From assembly GCA_043819695.1 (NCBI GenBank), contig JBDREM010000360.1, positions 1 through 50,515 of the forward strand: a stretch of 50,515 nt of DNA. Reading direction: 5' to 3'. This stretch comes from Planctomycetota bacterium (lineage in GTDB: Bacteria > Planctomycetota > PUPC01). Within the stretch, counting starts at the first letter, position 1. Each line of letters begins with the position of its first letter. The notes beneath the pieces were generated by a model. The model searched no databases, had not been told where the DNA came from, and saw only the letters and a program-made list of their open reading frames with translations. Below are positions 4,762-50,411 of this stretch, in pieces. Both the position numbers and the translations under genes were made by a program.

Positions 4762-5664
4762 ATGACGCTGCCCGACGCCATCACCGAATTCAACCTCGAC
4801 ACGCTCCCGCTACTGCGCCGCGGCAAGGTGCGCGACATCTTCGAACTGGACGGCAACCTGCTCATCGTCGCGTCCGACAGAATCTCGGCGTTCGACTCCG
4901 TCCTCGGCTCCGGCATCCCGCTCAAGGGCAGGGTGCTGACCGCGCTCTCGCTCTTCTGGCTCGAGACGCTCGCGGCCGCGTCGGACAACCACGTCATCAC
5001 GGCCGACGTCGACGCCATGGGCGAAGCCGTCGCGCCCCACGCCGACATCCTCCGCGGCCGGTCGATGCTCGTGAAAAAGGCCGACGTCGTGCCGGTCGAG
5101 TGCGTCGTGCGCGGCTACCTCGCCGGCTCCGGCTGGAAGGAATACCGGAAAAACGGCTCGGTCTGCGGCATCGAGCTGCCCGAGGGACTCGTCGAGAGCA
5201 GCAAGCTGCCCCAGCCCATCTTCACGCCCGCCGTCAAGGCCGAGTCCGGCCACGACGAAAACATCTCGTTCGAAAAGGCATGCGACATGCACGGGGGCGA
5301 ACTGCTCGCCGAACTGCGCGGCCGAAGCGTCGCGCTCTACACGGAAGCGGCCGACTGCGCCGCCGGCCGCGGCATCATCATCTGCGACACCAAGTTCGAG
5401 TGGGGAACGGCCGACGGCTCGCTCGTCCTCATCGACGAGGTCCTCACGCCCGACTCCTCGCGGTTCTGGCCGAGCGACCAGTACCAGCCCGGCAAGCCGC
5501 AACCGTCGTTCGACAAGCAATACGTCCGCGACTGGCTCGAGAGCGAGAGCGGCTGGGACAAGGAGCCGCCCGCGCCCCCGCTGCCCGACCACGTCGTCGA
5601 GCGCACCACGCAGAAATACCTCGACGCGTACCGCAAGCTCACCGGCCGCGACCAACTCCCGTGA
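4762..5664 (+). CDS. purC: Phosphoribosylaminoimidazole-succinocarboxamide (SAICAR) synthase
   Basis: 300-aa ORF with PurC blocks RRGKVRDIF, ASDRISAFD, ICDTKFEWG and DEVLTPDSSRFW. Confidence 0.95.
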   Translation: MTLPDAITEFNLDTLPLLRRGKVRDIFELDGNLLIVASDRISAFDSVLGSGIPLKGRVLTALSLFWLETLAAASDNHVITADVDAMGEAVAPHADILRGRSMLVKKADVVPVECVVRGYLAGSGWKEYRKNGSVCGIELPEGLVESSKLPQPIFTPAVKAESGHDENISFEKACDMHGGELLAELRGRSVALYTEAADCAAGRGIIICDTKFEWGTADGSLVLIDEVLTPDSSRFWPSDQYQPGKPQPSFDKQYVRDWLESESGWDKEPPAPPLPDHVVERTTQKYLDAYRKLTGRDQLP

Positions 5665-5680
5665 ACTCACCGCTCGGGAC

Positions 5681-5813
5681 GAACTGCCTCAGCGACACCA
5701 ACTGCCTCAGCAACACGAACTGCCTCAGCAACACGAACTGCCTCCGCGACACCAACTGCCTCCGCGACACCAACTGCCTCAGCAACACGAACTGCCTCCG
5801 CAACACGAACTGC
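5681..5813. repeat. Tandem repeat, 18-bp unit SAACTGCCTCMGCRACAC, about 7.4 copies
   Basis: Units read directly at 5681, 5699, 5717, 5735, 5753, 5771 and 5789, with a partial unit at 5807. Only three positions vary. The array starts 17 nt after the purC stop. Confidence 0.95.
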
Positions 5814-5890
5814 ATCTTACACCGACCGAGCGCGCCGACCGCGGCGAACTGTCTTGCAGGCACGAGCTACGCCCCCCACGGCAGCAAACC

Positions 5891-5928
5891 ATGCACTCTG
5901 AACGTTCAGCCGAACGCTCAGAGCACAC
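5891..5928. repeat. Copy A of a ~40-bp near-palindromic repeat (ATGYAYTYTGAACGTTCRGCYGAACGCTSAGAGYA)
   Basis: atgcactctgaacgttcagccgaacgctcagagcacac. The core ctctgaacgttcag/ccgaacgctcagag is an imperfect palindrome (4 mismatches in 28). Confidence 0.85.
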
Positions 5929-5944
5929 ACCATCCGGTGCCCAT

Positions 5945-6032
5945 GCATCCGAAGATATGCGTTCCTGCATCCGAAGATATGCGTTCCTGCATCCGAAGAT
6001 ATGCGCTCCTGCATCCGAAGATATGCGCTCCG
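5945..6032. repeat. Tandem repeat, 22-bp unit GCATCCGAAGATATGCGYTCCK, 4 copies
   Basis: Units at 5945, 5967, 5989 and 6011. Copies 1-2 are identical, and copies 3-4 share a T>C change. Confidence 0.95.
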
Positions 6033-6056
6033 GTCTCCCGCGCGTCCCTGAAAGTT

Positions 6057-6101
6057 ATGTATTTTGAACGTTCGGCCGAACGCTGAGAGTACATGCTATT
6101 G
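6057..6101. repeat. Copy B of the near-palindromic repeat, just 3' of the PaaX-like gene
   Basis: atgtattttgaacgttcggccgaacgctgagagtacatgctattg. About 90% identical to copy C, in direct orientation. Confidence 0.85.
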
Positions 6102-6123
6102 GCCATGCATGCTAAGATGCATG

Positions 6124-6912
6124 CTATCCGGCGCCTTCACGAGCGTCGCGGTTCAGTCTCTCGCGAAGCTCCGCGAGGCCGCTCTCCGCCGCTTGTCTTG
6201 GCCAGTCCGCGGGAAGGAGTCTCGGAGGGAGCATCGGGTCCCCTCGAGCGAGGAGCGCCATTTCACGCCGCGCCCAGATGGCGGTCTCGACGCGGCGCTT
6301 TGCCCCCGCGCGCGCGGAAAGGCTCAGTGCCGAGCGGCACTTGGCCGCAATGGCGCGGTAGCCGTTGACGAGGGAGTGTATATCCCAGAGGCTGGCCGGG
6401 TCCGCAGGAGCATCACCGGCGAGCGGGAGTAGTTCGGCACCCCGCAGGAAGGACACGGTGCCGCCGAACGTCCATCCTCGCAGATGTTCGTCGAGGAACG
6501 CTGACCAGTCGTACGGCGAGAGCCAGGAGCTCGCCGACTGCTTTGCATAGCCCATCTGGTGGAGGAGCCTGACGAGTCGCATCCGTACCCGACTGCACGA
6601 CTCGGGAATGTCATAAACCAGCAGGTTCCACGTTCCATTCCACTTACGCTGCGAGAGCTTAATCTTGTGGTCCAGAATGACGTCCGGTGTGGCGAGGGAA
6701 AGAATCGAGATCTGAGTGTTGGCCCCCTGGCCGATGCGACTGATCTCGCCCTTGCGCGCCAAGTAGGAGAGCATTTGCCTTACTTCGATCTCGGAGACAG
6801 CGTAGTCGAGCAGATCGAGCAAGTAGAACAGTGGCTTCAGGCCGGAGTGACGTCGAAGGATCCACAGACAGGACCTGAATTCGAAGTAGTCTCGTGATTC
6901 TCTGTTCGTCAT
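6124..6912 (-). CDS. PaaX-family transcriptional regulator-like protein
   Basis: 262-aa ORF with an N-terminal wHTH-like segment. The PaaX middle-domain signature is KWNGTWNLLVYDIPESCSRVRMRLVRLLHQMGYAKQSASSWLSP (compare W-x-G-x-W-x-L-V-x-x-x-x-P-E). The C-terminal half is helical. GC is visibly lower than in the neighbours. Confidence 0.75.
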   Translation of the reverse strand: MTNRESRDYFEFRSCLWILRRHSGLKPLFYLLDLLDYAVSEIEVRQMLSYLARKGEISRIGQGANTQISILSLATPDVILDHKIKLSQRKWNGTWNLLVYDIPESCSRVRMRLVRLLHQMGYAKQSASSWLSPYDWSAFLDEHLRGWTFGGTVSFLRGAELLPLAGDAPADPASLWDIHSLVNGYRAIAAKCRSALSLSARAGAKRRVETAIWARREMALLARGDPMLPPRLLPADWPRQAAESGLAELRERLNRDAREGAG

Positions 6913-6944
6913 CGGTCACCTCCCTGCCTGCAACGGTCAACGGC

Positions 6945-6988
6945 ATGTACTTTGAACGTTCGGCTGAACGCTCAGAGTATCATGATTG
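6945..6988. repeat. Copy C of the near-palindromic repeat, in the PaaX-like / pdxB divergent promoter region (candidate operator)
   Basis: atgtactttgaacgttcggctgaacgctcagagtatcatgattg. It lies 33 nt upstream of the PaaX-like start codon. Confidence 0.8.
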
Positions 6989-7088
6989 TGGCGCCCGGTC
7001 AAGTGTGTGGTAGGAAGGGAGACGGGTTGCGGGGCGCGATGTGCACCAGACCTTTCCAAGAAAGGGGCAAGGCGGTAGAATCTCTCTT

Positions 7089-8231
7089 ATGAAGATCGTC
7101 GCCGACAGCAATATCCCGTTCGCGGCGGAGGCGTGCGCCGGGCTCGGCGACGTCGAGATCGTCAAGGCCGGCGAGCTCTCGGCCGAGCGGCTCCGCGATT
7201 GCGACGTGCTCCTGTGCCGGTCGACGCGGAAGGTCAACGCCGAACTGCTCGACGGGACAAATGTCCGGTTCGTCGCCACCGCCACCATCGGCGTCGACCA
7301 TGTCGACCTCGATTATCTCGAGGGCCGCGGCATCGGGTTCGCGAGCGCGCCCGGGTCGAACGCGAACTCGGTCTCGGAGTACGTCACGTCGGCGCTCGTC
7401 GTCATGGCGCACGAGATGGGCCGGAGGCTGCGCGACATGGCCATCGGCGTCGTCGGCGTGGGCAACGTCGGCCGCCGGGTCGTCAGGAAGGCCGGGGCGC
7501 TCGGCATGACGGTCCTCCAAAACGATCCGCCGCTCGAAAGGCAGACGGGCGAGAGCCGCTTCCGGCCGCTCGTTGAGCTCATGGATGCCGACGTGATCTC
7601 GCTCCACGTCCCGCTCACCCGCGCGGGTGAAGACGCGACACACCACATGGTCGACCGAGCGTTTCTCGACAGGATGAAGCCGGGCGCGACGCTGATCAAC
7701 TCGGCGCGGGGCGCCGTCGCCGACACCGCCGCCCTCCACGCCGTAATCGACAGCGGCAAGCTGCCAGCCGTCGCCCTCGATGTCTGGGAGAATGAGCCGA
7801 ACATCGACGCGGGCCTGGTCGCCAAGGTCGCAATCGCCACGCCCCACATCGCCGGACACTCGTTCGACGGCAAGGTGAACGGGACGAAGATGGTCTACGA
7901 CGCGGCCTGCGAGTACCTCGGCGTGCCGGCGTCGTGGACGCCTGACAGCGTGATGCCGCCGCCCGCGGTCCCCAGGATCGAGCTCGATGGCCGCGGCCGC
8001 GACGACGAGGACGTCGTTCGCGACGCCGTCCTGGCTCTGTATGACGTTCGCCGCGACGACGCCGGTCTGAGGCGGATGCCGAAAGACGGCACCGGCGGCG
8101 AACACTTCGCCCGGCTGCGGCGGGAATACTGGCGGCGCCGCGCTTTCCACAACACGACCGTCGTCCTTACCGGCGGCTCGGCCGAGTTGCGGGCGACGCT
8201 TTCCGGCCTCGGCTTTCGGCTCGAAGGCTAG
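7089..8231 (+). CDS. pdxB: Erythronate-4-phosphate dehydrogenase (D-2-hydroxyacid dehydrogenase family)
   Basis: The N-terminus MKIVADSNIPFAAEACAGLGDVEIV...VRFVATATIGVDHVDLDYL...GIGFASAPGSNANSVSEYV follows the PdxB pattern. An NAD motif GVVGVGNVGRRV and a PdxB-type extra C-terminal domain are present. The ATG at 7089 is preferred over the ORF-track start at 7041. Confidence 0.87.
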   Translation: MKIVADSNIPFAAEACAGLGDVEIVKAGELSAERLRDCDVLLCRSTRKVNAELLDGTNVRFVATATIGVDHVDLDYLEGRGIGFASAPGSNANSVSEYVTSALVVMAHEMGRRLRDMAIGVVGVGNVGRRVVRKAGALGMTVLQNDPPLERQTGESRFRPLVELMDADVISLHVPLTRAGEDATHHMVDRAFLDRMKPGATLINSARGAVADTAALHAVIDSGKLPAVALDVWENEPNIDAGLVAKVAIATPHIAGHSFDGKVNGTKMVYDAACEYLGVPASWTPDSVMPPPAVPRIELDGRGRDDEDVVRDAVLALYDVRRDDAGLRRMPKDGTGGEHFARLRREYWRRRAFHNTTVVLTGGSAELRATLSGLGFRLEG

Positions 8232-32929: not shown

Positions 32930-33646
32930 CTACTCCCCGGCCTCTTCCTCCAGGTAGAGGATTCTGGCGCAGGAGTGGCAGAAGACGAGGTCGGTGCCTT
33001 TTCTGAGCTGTGCCATCGTCTCGGGCCTGAGTTTCATGAAGCAGCCCTGGCAGGTGCCGTCGACGACGGCGACCATCGCGGTGTGGCCGCGCCGTTGGAT
33101 GAGTCTCTGGTACTTGGCGAGGATGTCGCGCGGGACGTCCCTGGTCACGGCCTCGCGTTTTTTTCGGAGCTTCTGCACCGTGTTGCCGATCTCGCTGAGG
33201 TCCTTCTGCAGAGCGGCGTCCTCGTCGGCGAACCCCTTTTCGGTTTTCTTGATCTCGGCGGCGATGGCGTCGCGCTCCCCCCTCTTCTTGTCGCTCTTTT
33301 GCATCTCGATCAGAACGGCGTCTTCGAGCCGGGTGTTGTCGGCTTCTTTGGAGAGGATCTCGTGCTGGAGCGCCTGGAATTCCTTGTTGGATTTCGCCTG
33401 TGCGATCTGCTCCCGGAACTTGATGACCGCCTGTTCGGCGGCCTTGAGTTCGTTTTCTTTCAGGGCGTTTTTTGCGAGCAGATCCTTGAGTTCGGTGTCC
33501 TTCTTTTTGAGCTCCCCGCGGGCTGCTTCGAGGCTCTTTTGCTTTTCTTCTATTACTTTCGGAATGTTTTTTTGTTGTGCTTCGAGTTCGAGAATTTTCG
33601 CATCGAGCGCTGCGACCTGTTTCAGCGCCTTCAAGTCTCCTGACAT
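32930..33646 (-). CDS. Coiled-coil protein with C-terminal C4 zinc ribbon (COG1579-like)
   Basis: The 238-aa product starts MSGDLKALKQ. A long heptad-rich region is followed by CQGCFMKL...CHSCARILY. The 543-aa ORF in the track is an upstream extension across rpoD in another frame. Confidence 0.8.
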   Translation of the reverse strand: MSGDLKALKQVAALDAKILELEAQQKNIPKVIEEKQKSLEAARGELKKKDTELKDLLAKNALKENELKAAEQAVIKFREQIAQAKSNKEFQALQHEILSKEADNTRLEDAVLIEMQKSDKKRGERDAIAAEIKKTEKGFADEDAALQKDLSEIGNTVQKLRKKREAVTRDVPRDILAKYQRLIQRRGHTAMVAVVDGTCQGCFMKLRPETMAQLRKGTDLVFCHSCARILYLEEEAGE

Positions 33647-33669
33647 CAACGCCTCCTGGAAAGGGCCCG

Positions 33670-35339
<1,670 letters not shown>

Positions 35340-37692: not shown

Positions 37693-37767
37693 CAGCAGGT
37701 GGCGGATCTGTCCGCCGGACGGATACGGGCGTCGTCAGAGCCCGGGAAGAAACCACAGGAGGAAACA

Positions 37768-38376
37768 ATGGAGCGAGAAGAAAAGTCGGCCTTGTTCTTG
37801 GTGCTTCTTGCTGCGCTCGTGGCGGCCGGTGCGGGCTGCCGCGGCGGCCAGGTTCCGGCGGCTGCCTCCGACAAAGCGCTGGCGGGCGCGCAAATCACGA
37901 TGCTCGATGATTTCGACGGCGCGTTCTCCTGGACGCTCGAGAAGGACTGGGGCGATCCTGCGGCCGTGGAAGCGGCGGCGGGCGCGATGGTCGTCCGGCT
38001 CGAGCCGGGCTCAAACACGAAGAGCACGGTCAGCCGCGCGCTGGCGCCGCCGCGTGACCTCTCGAAGCACAACGCCGTCGTCGTCGACATCACCAGCGAG
38101 CTGAATACCGATTGCCTCGTGGGCCTCGCCCTGATCACCACGGCCGAAGGGACGTTCATTGAGACGCCGTCGGCCGTCGTGCATCCCGGTGCGAACAGGA
38201 ACATCGTTTTCCGGCTCGACGGACGGGCCTTCAAGAGCGCCGTGAGCAACTGGGAGCACAATCAGCCGGCCGGCGACCTTTCGGCCGTGCATAAGGTCAT
38301 ACTGCTCGTCTCGCCGAAGTCGTCCGGTGTGGTCCGAATCGACAACGTGCGGCTGGCCATCCTGCCAAAGCGGTGA
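37768..38376 (+). CDS. Lipoprotein with carbohydrate-binding-module-like beta-sandwich (function unknown)
   Basis: AGGAGG RBS 6 nt upstream. The lipobox is LVAAGAGC. The body ends ...SGVVRIDNVRL, as in CBM-type domains. The ORF-track start at 37282 is an upstream extension through non-coding repeats. Confidence 0.7.
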   Translation: MEREEKSALFLVLLAALVAAGAGCRGGQVPAAASDKALAGAQITMLDDFDGAFSWTLEKDWGDPAAVEAAAGAMVVRLEPGSNTKSTVSRALAPPRDLSKHNAVVVDITSELNTDCLVGLALITTAEGTFIETPSAVVHPGANRNIVFRLDGRAFKSAVSNWEHNQPAGDLSAVHKVILLVSPKSSGVVRIDNVRLAILPKR

Positions 38377-38461: not shown

Positions 38462-39727
38462 TCAATCTCCCGGCGGCTGTTGGCCGACCACGCAGACGGC
38501 GCCGCACGCCGGGCACTTGGCGCATTTACCCGCATGGGCGGCGGCGGCGCGGAGCTTGGTCCCGCAGGAGGGGCACTCGACGAGGAGCCACTGAGCGGAG
38601 TCCGGCGGCCGGCCCGGCCCGGCGCATTTGGTGCACCGTTCGGTGGCGTCATCGAAGTGATCGGCGCAGAAGGCCTTCCCGCACTGCGGGCAAAGCCGGG
38701 CGTGCGCTGTGCACAGGACCTGCTTGCACGCCGCGCACTGCGAGACGTGGTTGACGCAGACGCGGGCGCCGCACTGGGAGCACTCGAAAGCGCAGTCGGC
38801 ACAGGCGGCGGAGCCGCAGATCGAGCACCGCTGCACGTGCTCTTCGCACAGGGCCTTGTTGCAGCTTGCGCACGTGGCGGCGTGTTCGACGCAGACCGCC
38901 TGGCGGCAGACGGCGCACTGCCGGACGTGGTCGAGGCACACCTGCCGGCCGCACTTCGAGCATTTGATGATGCAGTCGGGACAGCCGGAGTTGTCACAGA
39001 GCGAACAGGTTCCGATGTGGGTCTTGCAGGTAACCTGAGCGCACTGGGGGCACGTGCCGCTGCACGCCTTGCACACGACATGTTCGCACACGGGGCACGT
39101 CCGGGGCTTGCAGAGCAGGCACAGGGATCGCTGGCAGCTTTCGCAGACCACGACGCAGTCGGCGCAGACGGAGTGGCCGTTGACGCAGCGCGTGATGGTT
39201 CCCCTGCGGCCGCGGCAGTTCTGGCACTCTCCCTCTTTCGCGGCGCTCCGTTGGATGTCCGACCAGGCGGAGGGCGAGAAGTCCCTCGGGTCGGTCGGCA
39301 CGAGGCCGGTGTTCTCGTCGACCCATCGCGCGGCCGCGCCGTTCAACGGGCTCTTTGTGTTGTAGCTCTGATAAGCCAGCATCTCGCCGATGCGGATGAT
39401 GAGGTTGAGGAGGGATTCGCCGGCGGCCCAGTGGTCGCCGATGCAGATGGCATGCGGCGCGATGTTCGGATGGAAGACGGGGGTGAGCATTCGGCACTGT
39501 GGCGCCTGGCGGGGGTAACCGAGTGTAAGGTAAATCTCGGCCAGGTGCTCGAGCCGTTCGGTGACGTCGCCTTCGGCGGTCTCGTGGAGGCTTCGGACCT
39601 TGAACTCGATCTGGTACCGGTCGGGCGGGCTGCCGGAGACCCCTCGGACGCGGAAGGCCGGGTGGTCCCGGAGCCCCTCCTTGATCTCTTCGTAGTCGGC
39701 TTGTATCCGTCGGAGTCGAACGCTCAC
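38462..39727 (-). CDS. Ubiquitin-conjugating enzyme (E2/UBC-fold)-like protein fused to a ~245-aa Cys-rich zinc-binding tandem array
   Basis: Residues 1-135 read RLRRIQADYEEI...YQIEF...YPRQAPQCRMLTPVFHPNIAPHAICIGDHW...LLNLIIRIGEML, giving the HPN motif plus a candidate catalytic Cys94. Residues 168-413 hold about 11 tandem 15-aa modules C-x2-C-x4-C-x2-[HC]-x3, followed by a terminal zinc ribbon. The GTG start forms a GTGA overlap with the upstream gene. Confidence 0.8.
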   Translation of the reverse strand: MSVRLRRIQADYEEIKEGLRDHPAFRVRGVSGSPPDRYQIEFKVRSLHETAEGDVTERLEHLAEIYLTLGYPRQAPQCRMLTPVFHPNIAPHAICIGDHWAAGESLLNLIIRIGEMLAYQSYNTKSPLNGAAARWVDENTGLVPTDPRDFSPSAWSDIQRSAAKEGECQNCRGRRGTITRCVNGHSVCADCVVVCESCQRSLCLLCKPRTCPVCEHVVCKACSGTCPQCAQVTCKTHIGTCSLCDNSGCPDCIIKCSKCGRQVCLDHVRQCAVCRQAVCVEHAATCASCNKALCEEHVQRCSICGSAACADCAFECSQCGARVCVNHVSQCAACKQVLCTAHARLCPQCGKAFCADHFDDATERCTKCAGPGRPPDSAQWLLVECPSCGTKLRAAAAHAGKCAKCPACGAVCVVGQQPPGD

Positions 39728-41001
39728 TGCTGCTCGTCCCGGGTTTCTTCCTTCGGCGTCGAAGGGGTCATCTGGAGCTTCAGCGCTCCGTGTTCTTCAA
39801 TGAGCGGGATGAGGTCGGAGACCACGATCGAGAAGCTTATGCCGGCGGCGGTGCCGCGGCCTGCCGTGAAGGTGTTGATCCCGATCAGGCCGCCGTCCTG
39901 CCTGTACAGCCCGCCCCCGCTGTTCCCGGGATTGAGCGGCAGCTGCATCTGGATGATCCGCAGTATCTTCTCGCCCAGGTCGTTGCGCCGTATCGCCGAG
40001 ATGACTCCCTTGCCGTACGACCAGCCCAGGCCGAGCGGATTGCCGACGGCGAAGACGGATTCGCCGATGTTGAGCGTCGGGCTCGAGGCGACTTGGGCGG
40101 TGTCGAACGAGCTCTTGCCCGCCGGGCACGTGAGCAACGCGATGTCGATGCCGGTGGGCGCCCGCCACTCCACCTTCGCCTCCTTCTGCGTGCCGTCCGC
40201 GAAGGTGACCGTTATCGCCGGCGGCCCGCCGGAGAACAGCCCATCGGCCCCGTTGATGACGTGGCGATTGGTGATGATGACCACACGGCCCTGCTGGTTC
40301 GCGAGGATTACGCCGGACCCCGCGGACATCGAGCCGCGCCCGCCGGCAACAATCATCACGTTCGCCCGGATCGCCTTCCGGATAGACTCCGGGATGGTGG
40401 AGGCGTCGTCTATGCCGTAGACCTGGTCGGGCCGGATGAGGCCGGGCGGCTCGAGCGGCATGGTCGTGTCGCGCTGGCTCAGGTAAAAGAGACAGAAGCC
40501 CGCGGCCCATGCCACGATCTCGACCACGCCCACGATGACCGCGGCCGCCGCGAACCCCATCCCCTTCAGGTCGCGGCGCGAGTTGATGAAGCCGACCGCA
40601 ATGGACCCGAGCACGATCGCCAGAAAGCCCGGCACACCGAACGCGAACAGGCCGACGATTGCGCACACGAACGCCACCACCGCCAGAACGCTCAGGCGCC
40701 TCCGGCCCGGCGAGACGACCGGCGACCAGCCGGGCGGCACGACCCGCGGCGGCTGCGGCGGAGCCGGCGTCCGGGCAACGTCCTCCGCAGTGACGACGAG
40801 GTCCGGCTGGGCCCGTCCGGCGGGCGACGCACATTCGTATGCGTGGCAGCGGCCGCTCTCGATCCAGCAATGCTCGTGCTGGATGTGGCCGCAGATCGGG
40901 CAGGACCCAACCGTCTGCCCGGACCGGATGGCCTGCTGGCAGCAAGGACACAACTGGCCCTGCTGCAATTTGCCGGCGACGAACATCTCAGGATTCGACA
41001 T
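39724..41001 (-). CDS. C4HC3 RING/PHD-like finger - TM segments - trypsin-like (S1/HtrA-like) serine protease fusion
   Basis: The N-terminal finger is CPCC-x12-CPIC-x4-H-x2-CW-x5-C-x4-C. Hydrophobic segments follow (LSVLAVVAFVCAIVGLFAFGVPGFLAIVLGSIAV, AAAAVIVGVVEIVAWAAGFCLF). The protease triad context is TNRHV / DIALL / GNSGGG. Confidence 0.8.
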   Translation of the reverse strand: MSNPEMFVAGKLQQGQLCPCCQQAIRSGQTVGSCPICGHIQHEHCWIESGRCHAYECASPAGRAQPDLVVTAEDVARTPAPPQPPRVVPPGWSPVVSPGRRRLSVLAVVAFVCAIVGLFAFGVPGFLAIVLGSIAVGFINSRRDLKGMGFAAAAVIVGVVEIVAWAAGFCLFYLSQRDTTMPLEPPGLIRPDQVYGIDDASTIPESIRKAIRANVMIVAGGRGSMSAGSGVILANQQGRVVIITNRHVINGADGLFSGGPPAITVTFADGTQKEAKVEWRAPTGIDIALLTCPAGKSSFDTAQVASSPTLNIGESVFAVGNPLGLGWSYGKGVISAIRRNDLGEKILRIIQMQLPLNPGNSGGGLYRQDGGLIGINTFTAGRGTAAGISFSIVVSDLIPLIEEHGALKLQMTPSTPKEETRDEQQ

Positions 41002-41046: not shown

Positions 41047-41775
41047 CTACATGACCACTGTAAACAGGATTATACTGTAAAACAAGCTCAATATCACCGA
41101 GCCATACGCAAGAACTTCGTGCGGCCCCCCGGCCCTCCGCAGCGCCTTGCGGGATCGCCAGAGCCAGATCGGGGCGACGAACACAAGGATGGGGGCCGGG
41201 ACCCCGAGGACGCTGAGCGCGAACAGAACGATTGCCTGGGTGCGGACCCGGCCGAGTTGCGACTCCGACGTGCCCCACGCGCGGTACTCGGCGCTCGTCA
41301 TCGGAACGGGCGACGGGAACCGGGCCTTGCAGAAGCGGCACTTGACGGCCACCGAACGAATGGGTTTCCCGCATCGCGGGCAGGCTTTCTCGTCGCCCCA
41401 TCCGCCCTGCCCGTCGGCCGCCTCGTCCTCCGGCTTCGGCGCCTTGGGCATGAGCTCGCAGCCGTAGGTCGCGCAGCCGCCGATCTCGTCCCAGCACTCA
41501 CGATGATAAGCAGCGCGGCACTCGGAGCAGGAGCAGGCCGTGTCGCCGTGCGCGATTGGCGTGCGGCACACCACGCAGACCTGTCCGGCCAGTTCGCCGG
41601 ACCCGGCCGAGAGCGGCCCCCTTGCCGCCGCGGGCGCTGCATCGGCTGCGGCGCCGTCGGCCGCGGGGACCGTCGCGACCCGGCCGCACTTGGGACATTT
41701 CGCGCGCTTCCCCGCGGCCGACGCCGGCGCCGAAATCCGCTGCCCGCATTTGCAGTTGTAGATGATCTGCATCAC
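41047..41775 (-). CDS. Zinc ribbon - C4HC3 RING/PHD-like finger - zinc ribbon - TM protein (E3-like paralog 1)
   Basis: The finger is CVVC-x12-CSEC-x4-H-x2-CW-x5-C-x4-C. The flanking ribbons are CKCG...CPKCG and CPRCG...CRFC. The C-terminus has hydrophobic helices. The start is GTG at 41775 or ATG at 41772. Confidence 0.75.
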   Translation of the reverse strand: MMQIIYNCKCGQRISAPASAAGKRAKCPKCGRVATVPAADGAAADAAPAAARGPLSAGSGELAGQVCVVCRTPIAHGDTACSCSECRAAYHRECWDEIGGCATYGCELMPKAPKPEDEAADGQGGWGDEKACPRCGKPIRSVAVKCRFCKARFPSPVPMTSAEYRAWGTSESQLGRVRTQAIVLFALSVLGVPAPILVFVAPIWLWRSRKALRRAGGPHEVLAYGSVILSLFYSIILFTVVM

Positions 41776-41799: not shown

Positions 41800-42594
41800 C
41801 TACATCGAGCTCGCCGCGATCAGGTTAATAATGATGTACAGAAGGCACACGACAAAGCCAATGATGCCTAGGATTATCCCGGCCGTCGCCATCCCTTTGC
41901 CGGCTATCCTGCCGCGGCTCGCCCTGATCTCCGTTTGCGCGCTCAGGCCCAAGCCGATAGCAATGATGCCGGTGATGACGCCGCAACAGATGAAGGAGGC
42001 GATGCCGAGAATGAGCGAGGCGATCGCCTTGCCGCTCGTGCTCGCCGGCGCCGCACGGGCGCGTCCCGGGCCGGCGGCGAGGAACTCGCCGCAGTGGCGG
42101 CACTTGACGGCGGAGGCGGCGATCTGCTCGCCGCAGAACGGGCAGGGCTTCGTGCCCGCGCCCGCGGCGACGGGCGCCGGCGCCTGAGCAGCGGCCGGCT
42201 TCGGCGCAATCTTCGGCAGCGGCGCGTTCGCGCACGAGGCCGTGCCGCAGCCGCCGTTCGACTGCCAGCACGAATCGTGGAAAGACCGGCCGCACTGTTG
42301 GCAGTTCCGCACCGCCTCGCCGAGACTGATGGCGTTGCCGCATATCGTGCACGTCCTGCCGGCGACCGCGCGGTTGGCCGCCATCTGCTCCGGCAGCCCG
42401 TCGGCGCCCGGCCCGGCGGACAGCGGCTCGGCGGCGGCCGGCTGATGCTCGGGCTCCGGCGAGACGGGCGCGGCGGCCGCATCCGGCACGCGGATCGTGG
42501 CCCCGCAGTCCCGACACTTGCCCGACCGGCCGGCTGCGTCTTCCGGAACGGTGTATTGCTTGCCGCACTTGGGACACTCGACGATGATGCTCAT
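41800..42594 (-). CDS. Zinc ribbon - C4HC3 RING/PHD-like finger - zinc ribbon - TM (DUF4190-like) protein (E3-like paralog 2)
   Basis: The finger is CTIC-x12-CQQC-x4-H-x2-CW-x5-C-x4-C. The flanking ribbons are CPKCG...CRDCG and CPFCG...CRHCG. The C-terminus has two Gly/Ile-rich TM helices. Confidence 0.75.
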   Translation of the reverse strand: MSIIVECPKCGKQYTVPEDAAGRSGKCRDCGATIRVPDAAAAPVSPEPEHQPAAAEPLSAGPGADGLPEQMAANRAVAGRTCTICGNAISLGEAVRNCQQCGRSFHDSCWQSNGGCGTASCANAPLPKIAPKPAAAQAPAPVAAGAGTKPCPFCGEQIAASAVKCRHCGEFLAAGPGRARAAPASTSGKAIASLILGIASFICCGVITGIIAIGLGLSAQTEIRASRGRIAGKGMATAGIILGIIGFVVCLLYIIINLIAASSM

Positions 42595-44212: not shown

Positions 44213-45517
44213 TCAGGGCTCGAGGCGTGGAGCGAACTCGACGGCCATGTCCCGGAGGCGCCTGGCCAGTTCGAAGCGCGCCGCGGCCCCGTCATCCTTC
44301 GGCTGCGAGAGCAGGTACTGGGCCTCGTTCACGCACACTTGGGCCAGCCGCGTCTTCAGCAGGTCCAGCTCCTCCGGTAACGTAGCGACGAGGTCCATCT
44401 GCCTGGCGATACGCTCGGCGGACAGGTACCGCTCGGCCATCTTGCCCACGTGGCCCTCCGCCTGTCGGAGCGTCAAGGCGGCGCTGTCCAGCCGCTGCAG
44501 CGCCTCGGCCTTGAACCCTGCGGCCGCTTCGCCCTGATCGCCGGAGAATTCTTGCTGCGAGAGGTCCGTCCGCACGAGCTCGATCCGCTGGGAAGCGCGG
44601 TTCAGCGCGAGCAGCACGGTCGCCAGCTCGCGGTCCAGCCCGTCGCGGAACAGCCCGGCCCGGATGAGGTCCTCGACCTGCTTGCGCTGATCGTTGAGCG
44701 ACCGCCGGAACACGCTGCCGGGCACGAACCCGCCCAGCCAGAACACGACCAAGACGGCGATGGCCCCGAAGATCGCCCACATGGCCAGAGACTTCGCGTC
44801 GGCTCTCGATTCGTCGGGCTCGACCCGCGCCGGCGAGTACAGACGTTCGCGTTCCGGCTCTTCGCGCTCGTCTTCGGCCGCCGCGGCGGCGTCCTGTCCG
44901 CCGGGCGCGGCAGTCTCGAGGTCGTAGCAGAGCTCGCCGCCGATCCAGTAGCGCCGCAGCCGTTCGGAGCGGCCCTCGCGCCAGTAAAAAATCCCCTTCG
45001 CCTCGGAACAGGGGTCGTACACGAGCGCGACGCTGTGCGGGGCGTTGAAGAAGTTGTCCTGTATGAACTGGTCCATGTCGGAGAGGAACACGCCCAGCCC
45101 GGGGTGCGAGTGATACCAGCCGACAATGCGGAGCTCGGGGAAGCGGTCTTCCATCACCTGATGCACGTGCTGCCAGGTCTCGTGGGTGAAGGTGACCTGC
45201 GAGCCGCTGCGGCGTGTCGCCGCGCCCTCGATGACCTCTTCGACCAGCAAGTATGGGCCGCCGGAATCGGTCAGGATTCGCCCGGCCAGCACGCCGCACT
45301 GCTCGACCGACGTGTCGCTGTCCGCGTGGTCCTTGACGGCCTCGAAAGCCTTCTCGGCAACGGCGACGCGATAATCGGCCGGCAGCGAAGGGAAGTCGCG
45401 CGATTCCAGCTCGGCCGCGTCGATCTGGCTCACGTCCGTCTCTGGGGCGTCGGGGGCGTCGTCCGTCTCCGGCGCTTGCTCGTCGCGAGCTTCCTTCTTT
45501 CTCTTCTTCCTTGTCAT
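44213..45517 (-). CDS. JAB/MPN+ (JAMM) metalloprotease with TM helix and long C-terminal coiled coil
   Basis: The JAMM motif is intact: E72 (VEQCGVLAG) ... GWYH136SH138PGLGVFLS146DMD149. A TM helix LAMWAIFGAIAVLVVFWLGGFV follows, and then a helical region of about 170 aa. Confidence 0.85.
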   Translation of the reverse strand: MTRKKRKKEARDEQAPETDDAPDAPETDVSQIDAAELESRDFPSLPADYRVAVAEKAFEAVKDHADSDTSVEQCGVLAGRILTDSGGPYLLVEEVIEGAATRRSGSQVTFTHETWQHVHQVMEDRFPELRIVGWYHSHPGLGVFLSDMDQFIQDNFFNAPHSVALVYDPCSEAKGIFYWREGRSERLRRYWIGGELCYDLETAAPGGQDAAAAAEDEREEPERERLYSPARVEPDESRADAKSLAMWAIFGAIAVLVVFWLGGFVPGSVFRRSLNDQRKQVEDLIRAGLFRDGLDRELATVLLALNRASQRIELVRTDLSQQEFSGDQGEAAAGFKAEALQRLDSAALTLRQAEGHVGKMAERYLSAERIARQMDLVATLPEELDLLKTRLAQVCVNEAQYLLSQPKDDGAAARFELARRLRDMAVEFAPRLEP

Positions 45518-45526
45518 GGGACCTCC

Positions 45527-46741
45527 TCACTCCTCGCCCGTCTCGCCGGCGAGTTCGCCGAGCGCGGCTCGCTCGTCGCCGGCCATAAGGTACCCCACGG
45601 CGCGCAGGCCGCTTCGGCCGACGAGGATGTCGAACGGCGGCAGGCCGATCTCAGCGGGCGTAAGGTCCAGGAAATCGTCCTGGCCGCCGACACTATGGAG
45701 CAGTTGGGGAAAGCGCATCTCGCCGCACGCGGGGCACCGCCCCTGCTCTTCGCTCACCTTCCCCAGCGAAACGAAAACGGTCTCGGCCTCGCCGCACTTC
45801 GGGCATTCGAGTTGGCGGATCACCTCGCGGCTCAGCTCGATGACCGCGTCGGGGCCGAGGTCCGCGCGGGCGCGCGCCAGGAGGCCGCCGAGCGTGATGT
45901 CGCTCGACCGGTCGGGCAGTTCGATCATCTCTCCGAGCGTCTCGTGCGCGAGGCAGTCCTCCTTGCGGGGGTACGACACGCCGTAGACCTCGCCGCTCTG
46001 CCCGTTGATGGTGAGCCCCGCGCCGCCGCGGACCTCGAGGCGGTGCAGGTACTTGAGCATCTCCTGGCACTGGAACCCGGCGACGATGGACGAGATTGTC
46101 GCGGTCGTCGGCGTGTGGCCCTCGAGCATCTCCTCGCGGCTCAACAGGGCGCACGAGCGCCGGGCGTCGAGCATCTGCCAGTCGATCTCGTTCATTGTGC
46201 ACTCGTAGCACGCGCCCAGGCCCGGCCGGAACATCCGCACGACGCCGTCGAGGCGCTCGATGGCGCCGTCGATCCAGGCGCGGCCGACCTTCAGGCAGGC
46301 CCGGTTCACCGCGACGCGCGCCTCGCGGTTGTCCAGGCCGCAGATGACCACGTCGGCCCAGCGAAAGACACCGAGGCCGAGGTCGTGGACCACGTTGCCG
46401 TCGAATGCCCGCGCCCGGGTGCCGGGGTGCATCGCTCTCACCCGCGCCGCGGCGACCTCGGCCTTGGGCTTGCCGATGTCGTCCTCGCGGAACAGCACGC
46501 TGCGCGCCAGGTTCGAGTTCTCGATGCGGTCGAAGTCGGCAATGAACACAGAGCCGATTCCGACGAGCGCGAGGTTCTTGAGGATCTCGTTCCCGAGCGC
46601 TCCGGCGCCGATGACGAGCGCCCTCGAGCGTTCGAGCCGGGCCTGGTCCCACCATTCGATGAGCTCCTGGCGGCTGAAGCGCCCCTCCCCGCAGGCCGCC
46701 TTTCCGAGCTTTATGACGTCGTTCATGCGCCTCCCCGTCAA
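45527..46741 (-). CDS. ThiF/MoeB/E1-like ubiquitin-like-protein activating enzyme
   Basis: ALVIGAGALGNEILKNLALVGIGSVFIADFDRIENSNLARSVLF (nucleotide-binding and Arg-finger-type blocks), then CGLDNREAR and GACYEC. The C-terminus carries a ribbon CPKCG...CPACG. Confidence 0.88.
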   Translation of the reverse strand: MTGRRMNDVIKLGKAACGEGRFSRQELIEWWDQARLERSRALVIGAGALGNEILKNLALVGIGSVFIADFDRIENSNLARSVLFREDDIGKPKAEVAAARVRAMHPGTRARAFDGNVVHDLGLGVFRWADVVICGLDNREARVAVNRACLKVGRAWIDGAIERLDGVVRMFRPGLGACYECTMNEIDWQMLDARRSCALLSREEMLEGHTPTTATISSIVAGFQCQEMLKYLHRLEVRGGAGLTINGQSGEVYGVSYPRKEDCLAHETLGEMIELPDRSSDITLGGLLARARADLGPDAVIELSREVIRQLECPKCGEAETVFVSLGKVSEEQGRCPACGEMRFPQLLHSVGGQDDFLDLTPAEIGLPPFDILVGRSGLRAVGYLMAGDERAALGELAGETGEE

Positions 46742-46765: not shown

Positions 46766-47044
46766 CTAGCAACGCTGGCCCGCTGTGATTTCGGCCTGCA
46801 ACCGCACGACGTCCATGTCCTTGACGCCAGCCTGGGCCAGCGTCTGATCGTCGAGCAGTTGGCGGCCCGTCGACTTGTGATGGAACTTGTAGCTCATCAA
46901 CTGTCCGTCGGGGCTGTTTCGCGGCAAGTTCATGCGGTTGACCAGCACGGCGATTATGCGGTTGACCGGAGCGTCGTCCGGCACCTCCGCCGTCTGGCGC
47001 TTGTTACCCGTAGCGTCCCATACCTCGAGCGTTATCATACCCAT
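46766..47044 (-). CDS. Small ubiquitin-like (beta-grasp-sized) protein ending ...EITAG-QRC
   Basis: 92 aa with a GGGAGGAG RBS. It is the first gene of the E1/JAB/E2 operon. Gly89 is followed by a 3-residue tail. The fold itself is inferred from size, pattern and context only. Confidence 0.7.
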   Translation of the reverse strand: MGMITLEVWDATGNKRQTAEVPDDAPVNRIIAVLVNRMNLPRNSPDGQLMSYKFHHKSTGRQLLDDQTLAQAGVKDMDVVRLQAEITAGQRC

Positions 47045-47114: not shown

Positions 47115-47142
47115 ATTCTAGTTGACCCGTATCTTGTGTCAA
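47115..47142 (-). promoter_or_regulatory. Sigma-70-type promoter candidate for the Ubl-E1-JAB...E2 operon
   Basis: The minus strand reads TTGACA (47142-47137), a 16-nt spacer, then TAGAAT (47120-47115). It lies about 70 nt upstream of the Ubl ATG. Confidence 0.45.
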
Positions 47143-48848: not shown

Positions 48849-50411
48849 TCAATTCTCAGGGCCGTCGCGCTTGCATTCTTCGGCCTTTGGCTTGACGTTG
48901 CGCTTCTCGACGGCGAAAAGGCGGAAGACGATGTCGTCCTTGCGGTCCTCGGCTGTGTAGCTCTTGTCTTCCACGCCGCCGTCGTCGCGCTGGTTCATCC
49001 CGATGCTATAGACGATGCAGTCGCCGTCCATCTGTCTGTATTTCAGCGGCTTGCCCGAGAACGGGTCCAGCAACTTCTCGTCTTGAAGCTCGCTCAGCGC
49101 ATTGGGCCATTTGCCGTTTTCGATGCGACAGACTTCCGCGCTTAGCGCCGTCGCGGCAGCGACAAGGCGCGCCTGGTACTGAATACACTCCAGATCCCAT
49201 CTCGCCCAGCTTGCTGCAATCTTCGCGGTGTCGTCCGATTCTGCCGTCACTCCACGCAGCCTTTGCGTTGCCCTTGCTGCCCGGTCGTGGGAAGGCGCCG
49301 GGAGAGCGTCGTACTCCCTTAGAAAGAACTTTGCTTCATCCATCATGTCGAGGCGGTATGCTCCAGGGCATACGGATACCCACGCCGAGAGCAACCGCAG
49401 GGGCCACATGCGGTCAGGTGAAACCATCATCCGGGCATCGGGCCTGTCCATGAACGCCTGCCACCTGCACCGCCCCGGGAAGTCCTGAGCGACGACAGCC
49501 ATCTGCTCGTTACGATGAACGGCCGATGCCATGCTGAAATGGGGGTGCTTCAGTTGCATCGCAACGTACGCTATCTCAGCCTTTATCATTTCTGTGATGC
49601 TCGTGCTCTCGGACTCCAGCAAGAGCTTGGAACGCAGGGCCCGGAGACTCTCGATACTTGGCGTTGTCCGGCTGAGAGTTTGCTCGATACTCTTGCACAG
49701 GTAACGTCCATTCGATGCCTGAAAAAGCTTCACCGCACACCACGGCTGATTGCGGAGCGACAAGTTGATGTCCACGATGGCTTCGCACGCGTCGAGCGCC
49801 CCTTCCGGCCGGCCCAAGGCCTGCTCGTGCAGGCTCTTCACGCAGAGCGTTCTCGCCGCTTGGCGGGCATCTCCAAGAAAGGCGCTCGCCTGAGACTCGC
49901 GGGTGTTGAAATCGAGGTTGTAGAAACAGCGTCGGTGTTTTCGCGCCGTCGCCAGAAGTGAGAAGAAGGCTCGTTGCTCGTCCAGGAACGTTGCCATCTT
50001 TACTTGCCGTTCCCTGTCGATCGGCTCACCCAGTTCGGGCATGTCGGCCGAGCCGACACAAGGCACGCTCATCTCGTACGCCTCGTCCTCGCCCAGCGCC
50101 GCGAAGGCCGCTTCGTAGAATCGAGCTGCGTTCTTGCCATTGACGGAGGCGCCGAATTCTTTCTTGAGGTAGTATGTGTCGGTGGGCAGGCCGCGCCGGT
50201 CAAGTTCCGCGAGGATCTCTTCGAGGGCGGCCTCGCCACGACGATTGGTGTTCCAGACCCAGCCGGCAAAGAGCAGGACGCAGAGCGCGAACACTACCGA
50301 CAGCGCGCACAGCGTCCGAAGCGGCCACTTGAGCCATCTCAGCCACCGCCATCTCGATTTCCTGTGTCCCTCCGATGGGCTCGTCGAATTCGCGTCCGCG
50401 TTCATTGGCAT
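48849..50411 (-). CDS. Hypothetical membrane-anchored protein (520 aa) with pseudopilin-G-like C-terminal motif
   Basis: The N-terminal TM helix is LRTLCALSVVFALCVLLFAGWVW, followed by a helical body. The C-terminus DPFSGKPLKYRQMDGDCIVYSIGMNQRDDGG resembles the DPWG-x-PY...Y-x-L-x-S-x-G-x-D-G end of GspG-type proteins. GC is lower than in the core. Confidence 0.6.
   Translation of the reverse strand: MPMNADANSTSPSEGHRKSRWRWLRWLKWPLRTLCALSVVFALCVLLFAGWVWNTNRRGEAALEEILAELDRRGLPTDTYYLKKEFGASVNGKNAARFYEAAFAALGEDEAYEMSVPCVGSADMPELGEPIDRERQVKMATFLDEQRAFFSLLATARKHRRCFYNLDFNTRESQASAFLGDARQAARTLCVKSLHEQALGRPEGALDACEAIVDINLSLRNQPWCAVKLFQASNGRYLCKSIEQTLSRTTPSIESLRALRSKLLLESESTSITEMIKAEIAYVAMQLKHPHFSMASAVHRNEQMAVVAQDFPGRCRWQAFMDRPDARMMVSPDRMWPLRLLSAWVSVCPGAYRLDMMDEAKFFLREYDALPAPSHDRAARATQRLRGVTAESDDTAKIAASWARWDLECIQYQARLVAAATALSAEVCRIENGKWPNALSELQDEKLLDPFSGKPLKYRQMDGDCIVYSIGMNQRDDGGVEDKSYTAEDRKDDIVFRLFAVEKRNVKPKAEECKRDGPEN

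Follow-up and report, generated by a model that had tools for sequence, protein, structure and literature searches.

The window analysed here is a stretch of 50,515 nucleotides from a Planctomycetota bacterium (GenBank assembly GCA_043819695.1, contig JBDREM010000360.1). On its minus strand, at 39724..41001, it contains a gene that encodes a RING-type zinc finger, a membrane anchor and a trypsin-like serine protease domain in one polypeptide. This gene, referred to below as the RING-protease gene, lies directly upstream of the gene of an E2 enzyme, in an operon that also encodes a ubiquitin-like protein (Ubl), an E1-like adenylating enzyme, a JAB peptidase and two further RING proteins, RINGa and RINGb. 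The fusion of finger, anchor and protease recurs in homologous operons. The favoured reading, which together with the mechanism set out below is judged a little better than even, is that the protein is a conserved subunit, anchored in the inner membrane, of a Ubl conjugation system that is itself membrane-embedded and typical of the Planctomycetota.

Domain architecture and membrane topology

The gene and its elements are the following.

39724..41001, minus strand: RING-protease gene with an ATG start, 425 amino acids (aa); RING, DUF4190 anchor and HtrA-like protease
40825..40962, minus strand: Prok-RING_1 finger, residues 14-59; based on Pfam, invariance, AlphaFold2 (AF2) and Foldseek
40579..40695, minus strand: first hydrophobic block, residues 103-141; helices 105-119 and 123-141 flanking the conserved G-V-P-G; predicted membrane hairpin
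40561..40578, minus strand: basic loop RRDLKG, residues 142-147, with the invariant Gly147; predicted to be cytoplasmic
40468..40560, minus strand: long transmembrane (TM) helix, residues 148-178
39787..40419, minus strand: PDZ-less HtrA/S1C-type serine protease domain, residues ~195-405
39724..39727, minus strand: GTGA overlap of the RING-protease stop and the E2 start, kept in 30/52 loci

The finger matches the Pfam family Prok-RING_1 (PF14446) with 30.7 bits, a narrow margin over the gathering cut-off of 29.1. Its eight zinc ligands, Cys18, Cys21, Cys34, Cys37, His42, Cys45, Cys52 and Cys57 (C4HC3), are invariant in an alignment of 27 homologues with 31-66% identity to the RING-protease and in both paralogous RINGs of the operon. 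Trp46 is likewise invariant in the alignment and shared with the two paralogues. The spacing of the finger, C-x2-C-x12-C-x2-C-x4-H-x2-C-W-x5-C-x4-C, shows the same C4HC3 order and the same longer last spacer as prokaryotic RINGs, as these are described in PMC11354881. An AF2 model of residues 1-69 (pLDDT 88) has a RING fold; its best match in the PDB, found with Foldseek, is RNF12 bound to Ube2e2 (root mean square deviation 1.4 A over 47 columns, TM-score 0.60). Further top matches of the model are RNF38, RNF13, RMR1, RNF165 and ZNRF1, and nearly all of the top 20 are RING-H2 domains, with C1 and PARP fingers ranked lower; the E value reaches only 9e-3, the domain being small. Matches by sequence only are weak (RNF126, E 0.007; RCHY1, E 0.009).

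The protease domain matches Trypsin_2 at residues 228-375 with 86.6 bits (E 3.6e-24). The catalytic triad is located at the codon level as His247 in TNRHV (40261-40263), Asp286 in DIALL (40144-40146) and Ser361 in GNSGGG (39919-39921). All three residues are invariant in the homologues and follow the order His-Asp-Ser, with the GNSGG oxyanion motif present. The best structural neighbours of the protease model are DegP, DegQ and DegS (Foldseek E ~1e-16, 30-34% identity, ~210 columns). The protein matches only the protease half of the Do/HtrA model TIGR02037, with 121.7 bits against a cut-off of 416.2, and reaches 76 bits against a cut-off of 423 with the DegS family model. These low scores are due to the missing PDZ domain, for which Pfam gives no match in the protein and for which only ~20 residues would be left after the protease domain. 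The match to the MarP-type model NF033740 is weak as well (E 4.8e-7, score far below the cut-off). Lacking a PDZ domain and scoring below the family cut-offs, the protease does not qualify as a canonical HtrA by these sequence models. The conserved helix IRRAIRANV (residues ~203-211) is presumably the usual N-terminal element of HtrA protease domains, and the domain therefore begins ~17 residues after the last membrane helix.

Two further open reading frames (ORFs), 384 and 412 aa long, overlap the gene in other frames. The GC content around it is 66-70%, and ORF length alone is no proof of a gene, since long chance ORFs are common in high-GC DNA. Family matches are confined to the RING-protease frame, and the frames of the overlapping ORFs give none. 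The initial annotation had described one of three finger proteins of this locus as continuing through hydrophobic segments into an intact S1/HtrA-type protease with the quoted His, Asp and Ser contexts. The Pfam domains and invariant residues bear out this single polypeptide, the motif contexts are real, and the neighbouring genes at 41800-42594 and 41047-41775 also match Prok-RING_1.

The membrane anchor spans residues 103-178 and corresponds largely to DUF4190 (PF13828, residues 106-166), which scores 33.6 bits in the whole protein, below the cut-off of 35, and 37.7 bits when the region is scanned alone. In most homologues the first hydrophobic block is 39-41 aa long with a conserved central G-[VL]-P-G, and is therefore too long for one span. 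In two divergent homologues polar loops break this block exactly at the turn, into 25 + 34 aa (P0041) and 28 + 27 aa (P0044). Three clear spans result in these two proteins, because the loops divide the block into two full spans. In the AF2 model of the full protein (pLDDT 84), helices 105-119 and 123-141 are parted at G-V-P-G and followed by a 31-residue helix at 148-178; Gly147 in the loop between the helices is invariant.

The charge distribution over the homologues allows the anchor to be oriented. The 15 residues before the block contain on average 2.96 Lys and Arg and the ~9-residue loop before the last helix 2.56, compared to 1.22 Lys and Arg and 2.26 Asp and Glu in the 15 residues after the last helix. 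According to the positive-inside rule, this pattern places the N-terminus and the loop inside and the C-terminus outside. Zinc-binding RING cysteines, moreover, need the reducing cytoplasm. As a lead only, the DUF4190 region of RINGa, a paralogue, shows a weak match to CD225 over the full length (E 0.085); IFITM3, which belongs to CD225, has an intramembrane segment on its N-terminal side and one TM helix at the C-terminus (PMC4820770). The literature search returned no relevant paper on the topology of DUF4190. From sequence and models we infer, with good support, that the RING and the basic loop are cytoplasmic, with the protease on the periplasmic side; the periplasmic location of the protease domain taken by itself is probable. 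The same arrangement had been assumed in the initial annotation. It is favoured by the charges, the three-span homologues, the AF2 hairpin and the affinity to HtrA, all of which are indirect and fall short of proof.

At its 3' end the gene is joined to the E2 gene. The RING-protease stop codon TGA occupies 39724-39726 and the E2 start codon GTG 39725-39727. The GTG is the true E2 start, since the N-terminus MSVRLRR is conserved in E2 homologues. The overlap had been taken to indicate stoichiometric co-expression with the E2. The overlap itself is confirmed and indicates translational coupling; stoichiometry is an overstatement, with 22/52 homologous junctions lacking the overlap. A sigma-70-like match, GTGATA-17-TATAAT (10/12), lies at 41069-41097 on the minus strand, in the 3' end of RINGb and just upstream of the RING-protease start. 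It is a consensus match only and might serve the protease-E2 pair as an internal promoter.

Recurrence of the fusion and its operon

A search of 5.8 billion proteins yields ~50 proteins that align over most of the length of the RING-protease with 31-62% identity, share its three Pfam domains and stem from many assemblies independent of one another. An exhaustive profile search covered 1.84 billion cluster representatives (50% identity), and the best 150 of these fall into four classes.

Full-length RING-TM-protease: 66 clusters
TM-protease without RING: 35 clusters
Fragments: 33 clusters
Same protease clade, other architecture: 16 clusters

A second survey was anchored on the E2 (alignment A2) to avoid a bias towards the protease. 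It comprises 80 metagenome loci, 65 of them informative, and the gene directly upstream of the E2 is distributed as follows.

Complete RING-TM-protease: 29/65 loci
Protease with its 5' part lost at a contig end: 21/65 loci
TM-protease without RING: 2/65 loci
RING-TM protein, no protease: 11/65 loci
Neither: 2/65 loci

A protease gene thus lies directly upstream of the E2 gene in 52 of the 65 informative loci, the RING is fused in 29 of the 31 complete protease genes, and the 4-nt stop/start overlap occurs at 30 of the 52 junctions. Among the matches listed from species-representative genomes, full-length relatives are found only in six metagenome-assembled genomes (MAGs) of Planctomycetota and one MAG of Candidatus Sumerlaeota.

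This recurrence, for which a survey of homologous operons had been suggested, also bears on the possibility that an assembly error or a frameshift joined two genes. Such an artefact is next to negligible. Apart from its being possible beforehand, it is suggested only by split ORFs in two long-read MAG loci (L008 and L009), which were left out as typical of long-read MAG errors. Collinear full-length homologues with 31-66% identity from many independent assemblies speak against it, as do at least 66 full-length clusters among the best 150 representatives and the 29 complete fused genes in E2-anchored loci. The artefact is rejected on these grounds, since the fusion recurs across independent assemblies and across the operon family. 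The seemingly long tblastn spans in L004, L006 and L009 were discarded as larger proteins; they reflect a neighbouring RING gene joined to the match.

The operon around the gene contains the following further elements.

47115..47142, minus strand: sigma-70-like promoter match TTGACA-16-TAGAAT (11/12) upstream of the Ubl gene; consensus match only
46766..47044, minus strand: YukD-type Ubl with the conserved end ...EITAG, then QRC
45527..46741, minus strand: E1-like ThiF-family adenylating enzyme
44213..45517, minus strand: JAB/MPN peptidase with one TM segment and a C-terminal part of ~160 aa
42734..44110, minus strand: polytopic membrane protein with ~6 hydrophobic segments and a C-terminal FHA domain
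41800..42594, minus strand: RINGa; zinc ribbon, Prok-RING_1, zinc ribbon and DUF4190
41047..41775, minus strand: RINGb; zinc ribbon, Prok-RING_1, zinc ribbon and two hydrophobic segments
38462..39727, minus strand: E2 (UQ_con); HPN at 39464-39472, catalytic Cys95 at 39443-39445

On the minus strand the genes follow one another as Ubl, E1, JAB, FHA, RINGa, RINGb, RING-protease and E2, with intergenic gaps of -4 to 139 nt. The order Ubl-E1-JAB-FHA-RING(s)-RING-protease-E2 recurs in eight loci (L001, L003-L007, L083 and L085), which differ in how many additional membrane proteins (RING, zinc-ribbon, DUF4190 or Yip1) they encode in the middle. The RINGb orthologue is always directly upstream of the protease gene. 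In L001, from a Planctomycetota MAG, two Yip1-domain membrane proteins lie between the FHA and RING genes (5433-7225). In L006, from a MAG assigned to Planctomyces sp. SH-PL62, the RING-protease gene (5200-6471) ends the cluster, with no E2 gene after it.

The conserved parts of the operon show signs of a working conjugation system, as far as sequence can tell: the HPN motif and Cys95 of the E2, which are invariant among its homologues, the ITAG end of the Ubl and the JAB peptidase. The Ubl ends in ...EITAG (46766-46780), that is, in Ala-Gly and not in Gly-Gly, and this end is followed among the homologues either by a variable extension of 0-22 residues or by a fused E1. Four loci have nothing beyond ITAG, compared to the additional QRC here. 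This C-terminal variation was read in L083, L113, L118, L088, L112, L117 and L122; L113 and L118 encode a Ubl-E1 fusion. The E2 varies in length from 155 to 476 aa among homologues. Here its tail (residues 161-421, 38462-39244, minus strand) comprises 261 aa with 50 Cys and ~20 CxxC motifs in short repeats, gives no Pfam match and ends in a zinc ribbon resembling those at the N-termini of RINGa and RINGb.

Membrane segments are found in every protein of the operon except Ubl, E1 and E2. The ~160 residues after the single TM segment of the JAB peptidase would lie outside the membrane, and the FHA protein has a ~110-aa loop between the first two of its ~six hydrophobic segments. It is therefore probable that several subunits of the system reach into the periplasm.

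The operon is flanked in the window by genes for DnaG, RpoD, a CT398-like zinc-ribbon protein, GatB and a LolA-like protein. The flanks of homologous operons differ and consist of unrelated housekeeping, flagellar or sugar genes. The CT398-like protein, a coiled coil with a C4 zinc ribbon, is encoded at 32930-33670 (minus strand) directly downstream of rpoD and dnaG. On either side of the operon lie a 520-aa ORF (48849-50411, minus strand) and a 208-aa ORF (37750-38376, plus strand), neither with a Pfam match; the latter has a lipoprotein-like N-terminus.

Proposed mechanism and competing explanations

The favoured reading assigns the following course to the system. The finger would lie inside and the protease outside, ~17 residues from the membrane as in DegS. 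Judging from family knowledge and gene order, the RING would dock the thioester-charged E2 encoded by the overlapping downstream gene. Ubl transfer, with the E1, Cys95 of the E2, the Ubl ending in ITAG and the JAB peptidase for processing or removal, would thereby be placed at the membrane, at a site adjoining the other membrane-anchored RING, FHA and JAB proteins. In the most speculative step, the protease may act as the partner of this reaction across the membrane: while a membrane-spanning client or a subunit of the system is Ubl-tagged on its cytoplasmic side, the protease would bind or cleave the same protein on its periplasmic side, comparable to PA-TM-RING ligases or DegS-type signalling. 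As an alternative, Ubl modification from within the cell may set the activity of the protease. Coupling of tagging on one face to proteolysis on the other, as put forward in the initial annotation, is speculative. A trans-membrane E3-protease, in which the periplasmic HtrA domain recognises or cuts clients, or senses envelope damage as DegS does, and is mechanically coupled to RING-directed Ubl conjugation, is possible and rather doubtful.

Several observations weigh against the favoured reading or parts of it. After the last ligand, Cys57, comes Ala-Ser where canonical RINGs have an Arg/Lys linchpin, and no residue at this position is conserved in the consensus of the family. The topology is a prediction, and reading the anchor as two spans would put the protease into the cytoplasm. 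The RING appears to be dispensable in some lineages, as 35 of the 150 best clusters and the loci L083, L142 and L149 indicate, and 11 of the 65 operons, a lower-GC sublineage, are without any protease. In the sister family described below, no Ubl genes are seen beside the proteins on three contigs, which are short; zinc ribbons there replace the RING outside Ubl operons, and the finger may therefore be a general handle and not a ligase. The coupling claim is weakened by the RING-less proteases at the same operon position and by these sisters outside Ubl operons. The full-text literature searched holds no experimental test of any family member. Within the protease-free sublineage, a RINGb-like protein lies directly upstream of the E2 in L113, L117, L118, L120, L125, L148 and L152.

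The variants bear on the explanation that the finger is no ligase and serves a periplasmic protease as a zinc module for docking or regulation on the cytoplasmic side, with RINGb or RINGa as the real E3. The protease would then be gated through binding of the finger to the Ubl, to the tail of the E2 or to the FHA protein, or through Ubl modification of the finger. RING-less versions (P0040 in L083/L084; L142; L149) start in the linker and keep the anchor, the protease and the position before the E2, in L083/L084 and L149 also the 4-nt overlap. Directly upstream lies a complete RINGb-type gene, on which account gene fission was rejected as the origin of the RING-less proteins. That they hold the operon position indicates that the membrane protease is part of the system whether or not it carries a RING of its own. 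Sixteen representatives, moreover, carry the same protease clade behind two zinc ribbons and two hydrophobic segments, with no RING, and their ribbons are of the same types as in RINGa, RINGb and the E2 tail. Members of this sister family are 430-470 aa long (P0228, P0234, P0241-P0245 and P0254 in L166-L168). A cytoplasmic zinc module joined through an anchor to a protease would accordingly be the broader design, the RING version having been recruited to the Ubl operon. Burroughs et al. (2011) also reportedly describe B-box, AN1 and LIM treble-clef fingers as partners of membrane peptidases in prokaryotes. The finger here nevertheless keeps all eight ligands and the invariant Trp of both paralogous RINGs, its model superposes best on E2-bound RING-H2 domains, and most loci show translational coupling of the gene to the E2. 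A docking or regulatory module in place of a ligase is unlikely.

Placing RING and protease on the same side of the membrane is more unlikely still. Here the anchor would span the membrane twice and the cytoplasmic protease would degrade Ubl-tagged substrates, as a membrane-tethered substitute for the proteasome, or trim the Ubl precursor after ITAG. The first hydrophobic block can be read as one long helix and measures only ~21 aa in the zinc-ribbon sister family; C-terminal processing of the Ubl is needed in most loci; and some HtrA-family members, such as plant Deg2 and Deg7, reside on the stromal side. Cytoplasmic Trypsin_2 domains also occur in defence systems, as a match to the reverse transcriptase (RT)-protease domain in the PADLOC scan illustrates. 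Against this arrangement, the most basic loop (~2.6 Lys and Arg in 9 aa) would have to lie outside and the acidic flank inside, which violates the positive-inside rule in each of the 27 homologues. Three separate spans are present in P0041 and P0044, and AF2 breaks the block at G-V-P-G. The usual Ubl processor, a JAB peptidase, is already present in the operon, and the nearest structures are the periplasmic DegP, DegQ and DegS.

An anti-phage or conflict operon like Bil or the type II cyclic oligonucleotide-based anti-phage signalling system (CBASS), with the protease as effector, is very unlikely. Other bacterial operons with E1, E2, JAB and Ubl are defence systems (PMC11601596, PMC10557695), and the E1 here matches the PADLOC E1-E2 and BilD models at the domain level. 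The PADLOC scan, however, returned only generic matches to the E1, JAB and protease domains and no system assignment, with no system-specific match for the E2, the RINGs, the FHA protein or the Ubl. The flanking genes DnaG, RpoD, GatB and LolA-like, like the unrelated flanks of the homologues, are not those of a defence island, and no signs of such an island or of a mobile element were seen around the operon.

Comparison with known systems

Burroughs, Iyer and Aravind are said to have defined prokaryotic RING finger family 1 in 2011 and to have predicted a class of operons that includes YukD-like Ubl conjugation; the Pfam families used here reportedly derive from that work. With operons combining Prok-RING_1, Ubl, E1, E2 and JAB, the present locus shares the Pfam match, a YukD-type Ubl, E1, E2, JAB and membrane anchoring. 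It belongs to an operon class already predicted in 2011 but uncharacterised. A description of the RING-TM-trypsin architecture was not found in the full-text literature searched, which does not cover Burroughs et al. 2011, where the architecture may already be listed.

Experimental demonstrations of Ubl conjugation in prokaryotes are so far known only for the soluble anti-phage systems Bil, CBASS and Bub and for one archaeal cascade. In this cascade, from Caldiarchaeum subterraneum (Hennell James et al. 2017), the RING is reportedly small and soluble and the ubiquitin ends in Gly-Gly. Both operons are prokaryotic and combine a eukaryote-like E1 and a Cys-dependent E2 with a RING and a deubiquitinase, whereas the operon described here has a YukD-type Ubl ending in Ala-Gly and only membrane-anchored RINGs. 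Bil, type II CBASS and Bub share with it the Ubl, E1, E2 and JAB and a C-terminal extension of the Ubl that has to be removed. They differ in their context of defence islands, compared to a housekeeping region here. The operon compositions of Bil and Bub given in PMC11601603 include no RING, and Bub works through oxyesters without a catalytic Cys (PMC11601596). The E2 here keeps HPN and Cys95, in contrast to Bub, and the operon gives no Pfam match to DUF6527. The operon family retains a eukaryote-like, Cys-dependent E2 and RING fingers, with every accessory component embedded in the membrane.

The protease half resembles DegS and other HtrA proteins in its triad, its GNSGG motif and its inner-membrane anchoring by N-terminal hydrophobic segments and a short linker. 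It is unlike them in lacking a PDZ domain and in its three-segment anchor, which is preceded by a RING predicted to be cytoplasmic. MarP (Rv3671c) combines a polytopic N-terminal anchor with a PDZ-less protease of the chymotrypsin fold outside the membrane; its anchor is different and it has no RING.

The closest likeness in design is found among eukaryotic and viral membrane ligases. In PA-TM-RING proteins (RNF13 and plant RMR1) and RING-CH proteins (MARCH and viral K3/K5), as predicted here, a cytoplasmic RING is joined across the membrane to a domain on the other face, and the RINGs of RNF13 and RMR1 are among the best structural matches of the finger model. MARCH-type ligases have an N-terminal C4HC3 RING followed by a TM hairpin. 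The PA domain of PA-TM-RING proteins is not a catalytic S1 protease, and these proteins have one TM segment and a C-terminal RING-H2, unlike the N-terminal RING and three-segment anchor here. The likeness is an analogy of design, with homology shown for the RING fold only, and not membership in these families. Taken together, the protein resembles in design an anchored protease of the DegS type linked to a membrane ligase of the MARCH or PA-TM-RING type. If the two activities are coupled, the system would offer a simple bacterial model of membrane E3 ligases that read information across the bilayer and would show what ubiquitin-type tagging did before proteasomes; if they are uncoupled, the gene is still a well-defined marker for the operon family. 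A true E3-protease would be a prokaryotic counterpart of endoplasmic-reticulum-associated degradation (ERAD) and PA-TM-RING surveillance of membrane proteins, and it would be the first case of a ubiquitin-type system that operates across the membrane of a bacterium.

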